The notes under the pieces were generated by a model. That model worked only from the letters and a program-made list of their open reading frames with translations, was not told where the DNA came from and searched no databases. 27,363 bases of DNA from a virus: the UHGV virus genome UHGV-0044886; one strand, 5' to 3'. This document shows, in pieces, positions 19,773 to 21,122 of the stretch; position 1 is the stretch's first letter, and each line of letters opens with the position of its first letter. Both the position numbers and the translations under genes were made by a program.

Positions 19773-20236
19773 CAGGGTTTTCGTCATGGTTAGCGACTTT
19801 GCGGCGGTTTAGAAACTGACCATTAAAGTAAATGCAAACGATGATCTGATGATGGTAGCGGCCTAAGAAGCCAGATGCCACGGGGTATGAGTCGTCCCCC
19901 GTCAAAAAATCGACCGCAGAGTGTCCCCGTCTGTGTATTAGGGAACGGGGAGGCACAACAGGTAAGGGCGCTGGTGTGATTAACCAGATGAACGAGAAGG
20001 GGCCATCTGTTGGTCAGCGTCCTTTCCTGTTGCGTCTTCTTTTCAGCGTAACAGCGGTGCTTAACAGCACTTTGGGTACAGTTCCACGAATTTACGGGTA
20101 TATCCCGTCATGCTGAAAGCGCTAATCACGCTGGAAGCCAGGGTTATGCATCCCCTGTTACCGAATTGCAGCCAGGGCGCGGTGCGCCGAAAAGCATACG
20201 GAGGTGGAAGCCCTCGCCGGAGACGTACCCGGCAAG

Positions 20237-20313
20237 TGATGGTGTAGCTCAGCGGTTAGAGCGGTTGACTGTTAATCAACGGGTCGATGGTTCAAATCCA
20301 TCCACCATCGCCA
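20237..20313 (+). tRNA. tRNA-Asn (anticodon GTT)
   Basis: Manual cloverleaf: acceptor GATGGTG/CACCATC, D-arm GCTCAGCGGTTAGAGC, anticodon stem GTTGA/TCAAC with loop CTGTTAA, T-arm GATGGTTCAAATCCATC, encoded CCA. Confidence 0.9.
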
Positions 20314-20315
20314 AT

Positions 20316-20391
20316 GCCGGTTTAGCTCAGTTGGTAGAGCGCCTGCCTTGTAAGCAGGATGTCAGCGGTTCGAGTCCGTTAACCGGCACCA
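20316..20391 (+). tRNA. tRNA-Thr (anticodon TGT)
   Basis: Acceptor GCCGGTT/AACCGGC, D-arm GCTCAGTTGGTAGAGC, anticodon stem CCTGC/GCAGG with loop CTTGTAA, T-loop GGTTCGAGTCC, encoded CCA. Begins 2 nt after tRNA-Asn. Confidence 0.9.
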
Positions 20392-21122
20392 ACACAACAG
20401 GTAAGAGCATTTGTAGAGTTCGACTCTCTACCGTGGGCTTTTTCCCGCGATGCGAGCCATAAATGCTCTTACCGTTGTGATGAAGTGCAGCTCTTAGAAG
20501 CAACCAGAAGATAAGCATCTGGCTTCACAACATAAACCGCAGGAACGACCAATAAACGGTAGTCCGTATGGAGAACACCCCGTTGAGGAAGAGGCCTGGC
20601 CGGAACCGTAACCGGCACTACAACGTTGAGAACATTGGCGTAACGGGGTCATATCCCAATCTATGAATAAATGTTGCGTTGCCGCGTGACAACCAGTGTT
20701 CTCAACATTGTGGTGAATGCACAGGCTGATGTGCCGCAACTACAGTAGTGCGCGCTTTGCGGGGCTTGCTACAACCCTGTGTCGGAGTTCAGCACCGACC
20801 ATCACTGTTTGATTCTCTGGCATGAGCATAACGCTGAAATAAGTCCAGTCTGGTGCGGCCCGATCACCCGCCGTTAGCTCCACGAAACGGAGCACGTAAC
20901 AGGTAAGAGCATTCTCCTGTAACGGGTTCATATCCCAATCTACAGGTCCACCAGGAATGCTCTTTCCGTTGCGGTGAATGCGGCTAAGCGCACGCGGGGA
21001 AATGGTTATATCTGTCCATTATTTCTCCTTATTTCCCCGTCCACGGTGGATAACCAGCTAAAGGACACCGGGAAGCACCCGGCACCGCAACCTTATTTCC
21101 CAACCAGTAATGAGGTTAATAA

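Follow-up and report, generated by a model that had tools for sequence, protein, structure and literature searches.

Host RNase III cleaves related irregular hairpins between the cistrons of phage T7 (R0.3, R0.5, R1, R1.1, R1.3 and others), punctuating the polycistronic RNA and leaving stabilising stem remnants. The processing stems of rRNA operons and species 1 RNA of the T4 tRNA cluster are also RNase III substrates, in which stems formed from the sequences that flank a stable RNA clamp that RNA and are cut. For lambda, a 1988 paper by Daniels, Subbarao, Blattner and Lozeron (Virology 167:568) reportedly describes RNase III processing of late-leader RNA in vivo. RNase III processing sites in the lambda late transcript are reported in the part of PMC7547250 that cites this work (Daniels et al. 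1988, its ref. 49). In vivo, E. coli RNase III uses about 22-24 duplex positions, or ~two helical turns (PMC6212723).

The locus considered here belongs to a P1-like phage (UHGV-0044886), of which a stretch of 27,363 nucleotides, referred to below as the window, was analysed. A preliminary description, made by inspection of the sequence, had listed three long stem-loops with related arms around two tRNA genes. We find that the repeated stem-loops around P1-type tRNA genes are real and represent one large family of RNA hairpins that has so far gone uncatalogued. No RNA family database contains the element, although few genomes have been studied as thoroughly as those of lambda and P1.

Four related hairpins in the leader of the ban operon

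The hairpins lie in the non-coding leader of the C1-controlled ban operon, which runs in the order Pban, a dicF-like RNA, Ha, tRNA-Asn/Thr, Hb, Hc, Hd, tciABC, trnI and ban. An intrinsic terminator at 19746-19772 (plus strand, as are the tRNAs, hairpins and leader elements below) closes the 'dicF-like region' of the P1 annotation and forms the upstream boundary of the hairpin-bearing leader. It is the sole terminator-like site predicted in the scanned stretch 19400-21300. Nearby, at 19834-19866, is a mini-frame that resembles a tmRNA tag. The tRNA pair at 20238-20391, cargo between Ha and Hb, comprises tRNA-Asn(GUU) at 20238-20313 and tRNA-Thr(UGU) at 20316-20391, both detected by ARAGORN and by the Rfam tRNA model (74.5 and 74.9 bits).

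The four hairpins are Ha (19947-20041), Hb (20390-20481), Hc (20616-20715) and Hd (20895-20973). A repeat search recovered the arms of the three that had been described, at the positions claimed: 20400-20412/20461-20473 in Hb (100% complementary), 20616-20638/20693-20715 in Hc (23-nt arms, 87%) and 20902-20914/20955-20967 in Hd (92%). The motif at 19955, which had been thought to lack a partner, proved to lie in 23-nt arms at 19951-19973/20015-20037 that pair at 83% and form Ha. The stems are longer than was claimed, and that of Hb begins 1-2 nt past the CCA end of tRNA-Thr (20391), not 6 nt after it. The 13-mer AACAGGTAAGAGC, with up to two mismatches allowed, occurs three times against 0.32 expected. 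Minimum free energies are -48.8 kcal/mol for Ha (z -5.83), -44.4 for Hb (z -6.17), -45.1 for Hc (z -5.07) and -35.8 for Hd (z -5.04); measured against 200 dinucleotide shuffles, all four thus have z-scores of -5.0 to -6.2, and 0/200 shuffles fold equally well. The plus-strand fold is favoured over the minus strand in three of the four, with Ha reaching only -33.6 kcal/mol and Hd only z -2.64 on the minus strand.

Hd has the consensus foot of the family. In Ha the foot is CACAACAGGTAAGGGCGCTG / CAGCGTCCTTTCCTGTTGCG, in which an additional U pairs with the A that is usually bulged. The foot of Hc (ACAAC-GUUGAGAACAUUGG / CCAGUGUUCUCAAC-AUUGU) has diverged and is without the bulged A, and it shows compensatory changes relative to the consensus foot. 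The internal sequence reported as common to Hc and Hd is indeed shared over 24 nt (GTAACGGGKTCATATCCCAATCTA; 20640-20663 versus 20919-20942, 96%). The apical domain of Hb consists of a T-arm-like hairpin, GUAGAG-UUCGACU-CUCUAC, a second hairpin and single-stranded GCGAG, set on the foot. The T-arm-like element (GTAGAG-TTCGACT-CTCTAC in the DNA) had been noticed before, and it is kept in relatives with compensatory changes.

Smaller conserved elements accompany the hairpins. Immediately 5' of Hd, at 20877-20893, the stem-loop GCUCC-ACGAAAC-GGAGC is a conserved companion module of the family and its commonest upstream context, with 18+ copies; covarying variants (GCCCACGACACGGGC, CCUCGGAAGAGACGAGG) occur, and the module is found too in the lambdoid loci L009 and L023. 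After Hc, a small hairpin (GCACAGGCUGAUGUGC, 20719-20734) stands 3' of the conserved UGGUGAAU; this downstream context (UGGUGAAUGCGCAGGCUGAUGCGC) recurs among family copies, and the exchange of GCACA/UGUGC for GCGCA/UGCGC in the hairpin is compensatory. The conserved leader from Hd to tciA (20970-21089), whose first bases, UGCGGUGAAUGCGG, lie at the 3' foot of Hd, resembles STnc100 (Rfam 33.4 bits, short of the gathering score of 47; E 3.8e-5). Its homologue in the K-12 Qin prophage is the intergenic leader between dicF and dicB (Qin GTGGTGAATGCGGCTGAGCGCACGCGG...CACCTGGAGGCACCAGGCAC). A search for a hairpin beside dicF in K-12 Qin found none, the common part being the downstream leader module only. 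No fifth copy was found after trnI, where a remnant of the small upstream stem-loop is all that can be recognised. The sequence 3' of the hairpins is GUGAUGAA or GGUGAAU, and no U-run follows any of the four. The earlier suggestion of terminator elements was therefore rejected, as none of the four hairpins combines a G+C-rich stem with a U-run.

A conserved foot and exchangeable interiors

The common part of the family is an irregular foot of ~20 bp, composed of 6 bp, a bulged A, 2 bp, a U·U mismatch and then at least 10 bp that include a conserved U·G. Among 68 distinct feet, 88.7% of cells are paired, versus 37-62% in slid registers. The preliminary description had proposed a check for covariation among relatives; double-sided changes are seen in 16 of the 20 foot pairs, and the feet exceed 500/500 shuffles on each of five measures. 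In stem positions outside the fixed search pattern, sense G·U outnumbers A·C by 124 to 11, an asymmetry of G·T that would also be expected from a folded single DNA strand. Nearly all unique viral pattern matches (80/81) also pair in stem positions that the pattern does not fix. In the genome scan, whose matches outside Enterobacterales are mostly due to chance and which served as a negative control only, 84/100 unique cores were without pairing in the positions that the pattern left free. Sequence conservation at 19 foot positions is partly ascertainment, because the search pattern fixed those bases, and a fuzzy search relieves this only partly.

The family is spread across temperate enterobacterial phages. 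The lambda copy, at 44789-44863, lies directly 3' of tR' (the 6S/tR' terminator), and no irregular stem between there and S exceeds it in length. Lambdoid prophages have copies between Q and holin, and P1, P7, D6, JL22, SJ46 and SSU5-like phage-plasmids carry them too. The nearest flanking ORF is co-oriented with the hairpin in ~80% of cases (87:18 upstream, 79:25 downstream), and 120 of 128 contexts lie outside long ORFs. Copies start a few nucleotides past a tRNA CCA end, a terminator U-run or a small stem-loop: 26 of 152 begin within 15 nt of the 3' end of a same-strand tRNA and 34 of 152 just past a U-run, and none of the 152 has only opposite-strand tRNAs nearby. In P7 and D6, the equivalent of Hd directly follows a tRNA-Ser, and the same leaders of relatives hold extra tRNAs (Tyr, Ser, Phe, Arg). 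In SJ46-type phages, Hc and Hd are fused into a poorly paired chimera; individual copies are therefore dispensable. Rfam searches of the window and 17 loci, at gathering and permissive thresholds, returned no family for the hairpins, only miRNA-type noise. A literature search for the motif sequence gave no match, and the P1 transcriptome preprint is without discussion of the hairpin region.

Between the arms, the interior ranges from 25 to >100 nt, with dozens of unrelated types between identical flanks. At least 42 unrelated types occur among 76 unique interiors, to which 55 longer ones are added. One flank pair carries up to seven types, one downstream flank occurs with 30, and the combinations of interior with upstream and with downstream flank number 117 and 120, respectively, so that interiors are exchanged like cassettes. 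Identical interiors occur in unrelated phage types; that of the window's Hb is found unchanged in lambdoid L009. In relatives Hb keeps its arms around three unrelated interiors, and in the window's type both inner stems covary while the loop UUCGAYU and GCGAG are invariant. Some interior types are tRNA-like and themselves covarying, and a T-arm-like motif is present in 4 of the 42 types versus 0.02 expected. The P1-type Hb interior holds D-arm-like GCGA-CGUCGGAGA-UCGC and T-arm-like AGGG-UUCGAAU-CCCU in tRNA order, and at 3665-3782 in L072 a near-complete, decayed tRNA-like sequence lies between the arms. ARAGORN and the Rfam tRNA model matched none of the four window hairpins, and an intact tRNA in the stem as a general rule was dropped, ARAGORN having found none in 73 long interiors. 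Interiors are also lost: 13 nt of the Hd loop are deleted in Ro157, and SJ46 lacks two interiors. The hypervariable interior, the lambda and lambdoid members and the fourth hairpin had all been missed in the earlier reading.

Proposed punctuation of the leader RNA and rival readings

The hairpins are sense-strand RNA elements of one family, and we favour, at about even confidence, the view that they provide RNase III-type punctuation of the untranslated ban-operon leader. The foot would serve as a processing signal of double-stranded RNA, recognised most probably by host RNase III. Cleavage there would free the co-transcribed non-coding cargos (sRNA-like pieces and tRNAs) both from one another and from the mRNA that follows, and would release the apical domain as a small structured RNA. 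The foot spans a duplex of RNase III size (20 covarying positions plus further pairs), is sense-oriented in operon leaders and sometimes clamps tRNA-like cargo. Small structured RNAs or tRNA-processing elements had been among the candidates first proposed, and they emerge as the best reading from the sense G·U bias, the covariation, the co-orientation and the abutment to tRNA ends. The conserved foot sequence, bulged A and U·U mismatch are unexplained by RNase III. They hint at a more specific partner, because RNase III has little sequence specificity, yet the foot is strongly conserved. A plain processing site likewise does not account for an interior that is hypervariable yet structured.

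Such interiors are central to a more tentative proposal, in which the apical domains are the functional part and the foot is a constant 'handle' that presents or, once cut, releases diverse small structured RNAs. Several of these would be mimics of tRNA or tmRNA that serve as decoys, sponges or enzyme ligands when phages are in conflict with hosts or with each other, and diversifying selection would account for the hypervariability. The proposal overlaps with punctuation as regards the foot and places function in the cassette. It is consistent with the at least 42 types among 76 unique and 55 longer interiors, with as many as seven types per flank pair and 30 beside one downstream flank, with the conservation of the window's Hb type (covarying inner stems, invariant UUCGAYU and GCGAG), and with the enrichment of T-arm-like motifs (4 types against 0.02 expected). 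The layout of Hb, from T-arm through capped hairpin and single strand to foot, also corresponds in topology to a tRNA-like domain whose acceptor end is closed. However, most interior types have too few variants for a selection test, unconstrained loops swapped by inter-phage recombination would look equally hypervariable, and the losses in Ro157 and SJ46 are without sign of consequence. We think it unlikely that the hairpins form a hypervariable RNA-cassette system, with a protein-recognised foot and >100 interchangeable small structured RNAs that temperate phages trade via the feet and use in conflict. If they do, the cassettes would act against host defences that target tRNA or translation, or against rival phages, and the nearby tmRNA-tag-like frames and the phage tRNAs would belong with them to one toolkit for translation rescue or counter-defence. 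A functional apical domain would in any case make this a rare hypervariable non-coding RNA locus in phages, and the hairpins adjoin phage tRNAs and tmRNA-like sequences, for which a link to counter-defence has recently emerged.

On another reading it is the DNA that matters, and the palindrome would serve as a recombination site, a mobile element (attC-like or REP/MITE-like) or portable homology for the mosaic exchange of leader modules among phages, with the RNA hairpin a by-product. The architecture is attC-like, with near-invariant AAC/GTT at the base (columns 6-8 and 50-52 of alignment A2), an extrahelical base on the 5' arm, a variable terminal structure, an overall size of 60-140 nt and a position directly after cargo, comparable to that of attC behind its cassette gene. 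A single unit with 3'-arm direct repeats at its ends distinguishes JL22 from P1, SJ46 shows recombination between repeats, and the identity of the window's Hb interior with that of L009 fits as well. We nevertheless regard a DNA-level element as doubtful. Flank shuffling is symmetric (117 versus 120) and not one-sided, as would be expected of crossover in R' only, and attC-like recombination was therefore downgraded; the R-box consensus is matched only partly, the third position being A and not a pyrimidine; and neither lambda nor P1 is known to encode an integron integrase or a HUH transposase. Copies occur in restricted orientation within transcribed leaders, and the conserved U·G wobble and RNA-type covariation of interiors fit selection on RNA. 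Miniature repeats had been an early candidate, from which the exchangeable cassette survives; a MITE/REP-like repeat was rejected, the interior being hypervariable and the copies ~80% co-oriented with flanking genes and confined to leaders. That the hairpins are functionless, decayed tRNA genes of a once larger array, with arms that are former tRNA flanks, was another early candidate. It holds for a subset of interiors, the P1-type Hb with its D-arm-like and T-arm-like parts in tRNA order and the near-complete sequence of L072, and it gains from the intact tRNA-Ser of P7 and D6, where the window has degenerate sequence 5' of Hd, and from the extra Tyr, Ser, Phe and Arg tRNAs of relatives. As a general account it is very unlikely, since most interiors are not tRNA-like, only 4 of 42 types have the T-arm-like motif, and the searches found no tRNA in the four elements (ARAGORN, Rfam) or the 73 long interiors (ARAGORN). 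Moreover, structural selection on the arms is strong across lambda, P1 and SSU5-like phages, which would not be expected of the flanks of decaying pseudogenes.

It is barely credible that the region encodes, on the minus strand, the Plp (putative lipoprotein) and Upl proteins annotated in P1, with the inverted repeats incidental. Both are annotated with predicted promoters in the P1 GenBank record, and ORFs of 81 and 63 aa are present at 20494-20739 and 20740-20931. However, plp has frame-breaking indels in 5 of 11 distinct homologues, with stops at codons 9-22, and a point mutation cuts the window copy to 81 aa, compared with 125 aa in P1. Its variable sites fall 5/6/11 by codon position, which is not significant, and its synonymous:non-synonymous ratio is 9:12. 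In P1, plp overlaps tRNA-Thr on the opposite strand; P7 and D6 have no gene annotated here and a tRNA-Ser in place of the upl region; and a promoter-like site, sought on both strands, was not found. The suspicion that the ORFs here are artefacts is thus borne out for plp and upl by the indels, the premature stop and the lack of significant codon-position bias. GenBank places the element under dubious ORFs in lambda (orf-64) as well as in P1, and recognising the hairpin family corrects these annotations and accounts for mosaic indels in leaders. The conserved foot offers a short portable homology for the exchange of leader modules among phages of unrelated type (P1-like, lambdoid and SSU5-like), and leader punctuation provides a testable model of how phages may excise tRNAs and small RNAs from long leader transcripts.

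Comparison with known systems

YrlA (Rfam RF02553) is likewise a long bulged stem with a tRNA-like module, comparable to the T-arm and capped hairpin of Hb and the D-arm and T-arm of its P1-type form. It differs in that few interior types of the hairpins are tRNA-like. The RF02553 model matched no hairpin, its sole match (23.9 bits; gathering score 69) lying over tRNA-Asn/Thr, and usual hosts such as E. coli K-12 are, to our knowledge, without an Rsr partner. Integron attC sites share with the hairpins an imperfect palindrome, an AAC...GTT base, an extrahelical base, a variable terminus, size and position after cargo. With respect to the attC core RYYYAAC/GTTRRRY, the AAC and GTT of the hairpins are near-invariant, and their consensus GCACAAC/GTTGTGC violates the third position on both sides. 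In contrast to attC, the hairpins show symmetric flank shuffling that is not R'-restricted, and RNA-type covariation in leader RNA.

The stems of rRNA operons and T4 species 1 RNA resemble those hairpins whose feet clamp tRNA-like cargo (P1-type Hb; L072) within tRNA clusters. Most interiors, however, are not recognisable stable RNAs, and intact tRNAs lie beside the stems, not inside them. In lambda, the family member at 44789-44863 is the longest irregular stem of the pR'-to-S leader, and, in view of the absence of a better stem, it may be where the RNase III processing reported there takes place. The lambda late-leader work reportedly concerns one site in one phage, and not a family whose feet are conserved and whose interiors are swapped, nor copies beside the tRNA genes of an early P1 operon under C1 control. 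The RNase III sites of T7 are, like the leader hairpins, a set of related irregular hairpins in a phage polycistronic transcript. There is no sequence similarity between the two, and the T7 sites are conserved over their whole length, with a characteristic internal loop, whereas the leader hairpins combine a conserved foot, their only constant part, with a hypervariable top, and most of their cargos are non-coding RNAs.

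Four hairpins in the ban-operon leader

The window is 97% identical over 19700-21200 to P1 68811-70310, identifying a P1-like phage. Elsewhere in it, P1 C4 antisense RNA and its targets were detected with Rfam; the matches to this immunity RNA with its a1/b1 targets and to sok antitoxin RNA (114 bits), at 547-599, 668-753 and 4067-4241, fit a P1-like plasmid prophage. The P1 record places the promoters P1ban and P2ban, under C1 control, together with a 'dicF-like region' upstream of this stretch, tRNA-Asn, tRNA-Thr and the minus-strand ORFs plp and upl within it, and tciABC, trnI and ban after it, with both tRNAs, tciABC, trnI and ban on the plus strand. 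Given this layout, the hairpins lie in a long, mostly non-coding operon leader transcribed left to right.

A repeat search found the three hairpins of the preliminary description in place and confirmed a 24-nt sequence common to Hc and Hd; the T-arm-like hairpin proposed within Hb is also present. The motif at 19955, thought to lack a partner, in fact pairs with 20015-20037 to form a fourth hairpin, and the Hb stem starts 1-2 nt, not 6 nt, after the tRNA-Thr CCA. On the plus strand, Ha (19947-20041) folds at -48.8 kcal/mol (z -5.8), Hb (20390-20481) at -44.4 kcal/mol (z -6.2), Hc (20616-20715) at -45.1 kcal/mol (z -5.1) and Hd (20895-20973) at -35.8 kcal/mol (z -5.0); for each, none of 200 shuffles folded as well. 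The minus-strand RNA folds more weakly in three of the four, and the core 13-mer occurs three times (0.32 expected).

Scanning 19400-21300 detected no promoter-like site on either strand. The sole terminator-like site there is a strong intrinsic plus-strand terminator at 19746-19772, ending the P1-annotated 'dicF-like region' (19680-19781), and the hairpins were ruled out as terminators. The DicF Rfam model did not recover that region, even at E up to 10. The tciA 5' leader after Hd (20970-21089) gives a sub-threshold STnc100 match (33.4 bits; gathering score 47) and shares homology with the leader lying between dicF and dicB in the K-12 Qin prophage (L350, about 455-600), which is without a family hairpin. 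Because of these two likenesses, the P1 ban-operon leader looks like a rearranged dicBF-type operon comprising, in order, a dicF-like RNA, the tciA leader and a cell-division- or TerB-like gene.

The overlapping ORFs had been suspected artefacts, and in several relatives their frames are indeed broken or replaced. On the opposite strand, P1 plp runs across tRNA-Thr; frame-breaking indels with early stops occur in 5 of 11 distinct homologues, the window copy is shortened by a point mutation, and variation falls 5/6/11 by codon position, with 9 synonymous to 12 non-synonymous changes. In P7 and D6 a tRNA-Ser region stands in place of upl. Both ORFs are best regarded as artefacts of inverted repeats.

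Conservation, range and context of the foot

The window was aligned with P1, JL22, Ro157c2YLVW, D6, P7 and SJ46. The Hb arms are kept and differ in a compensatory way (window GAGCA/UGCUC; P1 GGGUA/UACCC); they enclose three unrelated interiors, the rest of these genomes being about 97% identical. JL22 has two tandem Hb-type copies; P7 and D6 carry an Hd-type hairpin directly after an intact tRNA-Ser(UGA), its interior again different; SJ46 joins the Hc 5' half to the Hd 3' half through the interior common to both; and Ro157 has lost 13 nt of the Hd loop. Leader tRNA sets differ widely among relatives (Asn, Thr, Tyr, Ser, Phe, Arg(UCU), Leu and a CUA-anticodon tRNA, called 'Pyl' by ARAGORN and a possible amber suppressor; L003 1819-1905, L008 1585-1671, L129 3946-4265, L066 9203-9861).

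Beyond P1, BLAST against E. coli genomes located lambdoid prophage copies between the Q antiterminator and holin genes, in the sense of late transcription, and SSU5-like phage-plasmids carry copies within tRNA clusters. The lambda copy, CACAACAGGTAAGAGCATT...AGTGCTCTTTCCGTTGTG at 44789-44863, begins about 8 nt past the U-run of the 6S/tR' terminator. A downstream CAGCACAACCCAAA that resembles a degenerate 5' foot offers the 3' foot strand of this copy, UUUCCGUUGUGCUG, a second pairing partner (L011 1053-1066 with 1134-1147, that is, lambda 44852-44865 with 44933-44946), which may reflect an alternative fold or what is left of a second hairpin. Searching IMG/VR for the two foot halves gave at least 120 loci with a 40-70-nt gap and 98 further loci with a 71-100-nt gap. 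Applied to 596 Gb of bacterial genomes, this pattern returned mostly chance matches outside Enterobacterales. With the genome-scan matches as control, the eight stem positions left unfixed by the pattern were paired in 80 of 81 unique viral cores, against 84 of 100 unique genome-scan cores unpaired. In the window, in lambda and in 16 other loci the element matched no Rfam family. Annotation of it is likewise absent from GenBank, where its sequence either has no feature or falls beneath 'hypothetical protein' ORFs, lambda orf-64 among them.

Covariation was assessed in 68 distinct feet, diverged ones included (Ha, Hc and GAUAAUGGC/GCCAUUAUC of L066). The 20-pair model of this conserved stem is 88.7% paired, compared with 37-62% when the 3' partner is slid; two-sided changes occur at 16 of 20 pairs, and all five foot measures exceed 500 of 500 shuffles. 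The feet keep three irregularities: an A bulged out behind pair six, a U.U mismatch that is unpaired in 52 of the 68, and a U.G wobble. At unfixed stem positions the sense strand has 124 G.U against 11 A.C, and therefore the plus strand is what folds.

Upstream, the nearest ORF of 120 aa or more runs in the direction of the hairpin in 87 of 105 cases, and downstream in 79 of 104; of the 128 distinct contexts, 120 fall outside long ORFs. Among 152 copies, 26 start within 15 nt of a same-strand tRNA 3' end and a further 36 lie within 1.5 kb of a tRNA on their own strand; no copy has nearby tRNAs on the opposite strand alone, and 34 come after a U-run. Many others are preceded by a small covarying stem-loop, GCUCC-ACGAAAC-GGAGC (20877-20893, before Hd), and some adjoin a tRNA 5' end; UGGUGAAU and a small covarying hairpin (20719-20734, after Hc) recur 3' of copies. 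These results show that the hairpins are sense-strand RNA structures under selection, at RNA-cargo boundaries in phage leaders. Separately, GGTGTGACAGTCGGGAAGAGTCCGGCGCA at 22061-22090, 3' of trnI, resembles the small stem-loop module GGUGUGACACCUCGGAAGAGACGAGG found ahead of family hairpins in other phages; in the window it is not followed by a large hairpin, and D6 has a diverged hairpin at the equivalent position.

Variable interiors and tmRNA-like neighbours

What the foot encloses is a hypervariable cassette. At least 42 unrelated types were counted among 76 unique interiors 25-68 nt long, and 55 further, long hairpins add more. Decayed tRNA genes had been among the suggested origins; no intact tRNA was found within the long interiors. 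A T-arm-like motif occurs in four types (0.02 expected), in the P1-type Hb interior segments like a D-arm and a T-arm follow each other as in a tRNA, and in L072 the foot clamps a near-complete decayed tRNA.

At 19834-19866, on the plus strand and preceded by AAAGUAAAU, lies a tmRNA-tag-like mini-frame, GCA AAC GAT GAT CTG ATG ATG GTA GCG GCC TAA (ANDDLMMVAA*); the E. coli SsrA tag is ANDENYALAA. Similar frames occur at L009 2250-2282 and in L030, L023, L112, L111, L298 and others, with 10-codon variants ANDEQFLAVA, ANDDLMLMAA, ANDDVVLMAA, ANDNQYLAVA, ANDDLMLAAA and ANDDLMMAAA, synonymous differences (GCC/GCG, GAG/GAA, GCT/GCG) and TAA/TAG exchange. Rfam permuted and beta tmRNA models match the tag region only, below threshold (24.1, 22.9 and 14-17 bits), ARAGORN called no tmRNA, and a limited literature search found no description of the mini-frame. 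A phage tmRNA-like gene in reduced or rearranged form, or a remnant of such a gene that has been conserved, could account for it. The motif AG(C/T)TCCACGAA, at 20080-20090, 20876-20886 and upstream of the L023 and L009 hairpins, resembles the ssrA 3' end (CCAGCUCCACCA). In lambdoid loci a T-arm-like GCUGGGUUGAUCUCCAGC precedes it and the acceptor-like strand is closed into the GCUCC-ACGAAAC-GGAGC hairpin, a layout reminiscent of circularly permuted tmRNA genes.

Proposed processing and alternative readings

The foot would serve as a processing site for host RNase III. Precedents for such processing are the T7 R sites, rRNA processing stems and T4 species 1 RNA. The RNase III sites of the lambda late transcript presumably lie just beyond tR', and of the irregular stems from tR' to S the family stem is the longest. 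Processing sites for this enzyme have been reported in that transcript (Daniels et al. 1988, as cited in PMC7547250), and foot size and pairing match what E. coli RNase III uses in vivo (PMC6212723). Together, these four lines suggest the assignment.

RNase III does not explain why the foot sequence is conserved with its bulge and mismatch, nor the structured, hypervariable top, and for this reason we keep two other readings open. The interiors may themselves carry function. In seven Hb-type variants, 3 of 6 pairs in the T-arm-like stem show compensatory changes beneath an invariant UUCGAYU loop, 5 of 7 pairs covary in the hairpin beside it, and a single-stranded GCGAG is kept; this order of T-arm, capped hairpin, single strand and foot corresponds to that of a tRNA-like domain whose acceptor end is closed. 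Judged by these substitutions, at least one interior type is under selection of its own. Alternatively, the foot could act at the DNA level, as an attC-like site or as portable homology. The window Hb interior is identical in a lambdoid prophage, and so the cassette moves between unrelated phage types via both feet; 22 of 95 flank pairs hold more than one interior type (maximum 7), and one downstream flank is found with 30. The DNA-level reading is weakened by the symmetry of this shuffling, interiors combining equally freely with upstream (117) and downstream (120) flanks, and by the RNA-type signals.

The feature is real and non-coding, and no artefact. Among phage RNA-processing hairpins it stands as a new variant at the family level, putatively cut by RNase III, with an unusual design of conserved foot and variable top.
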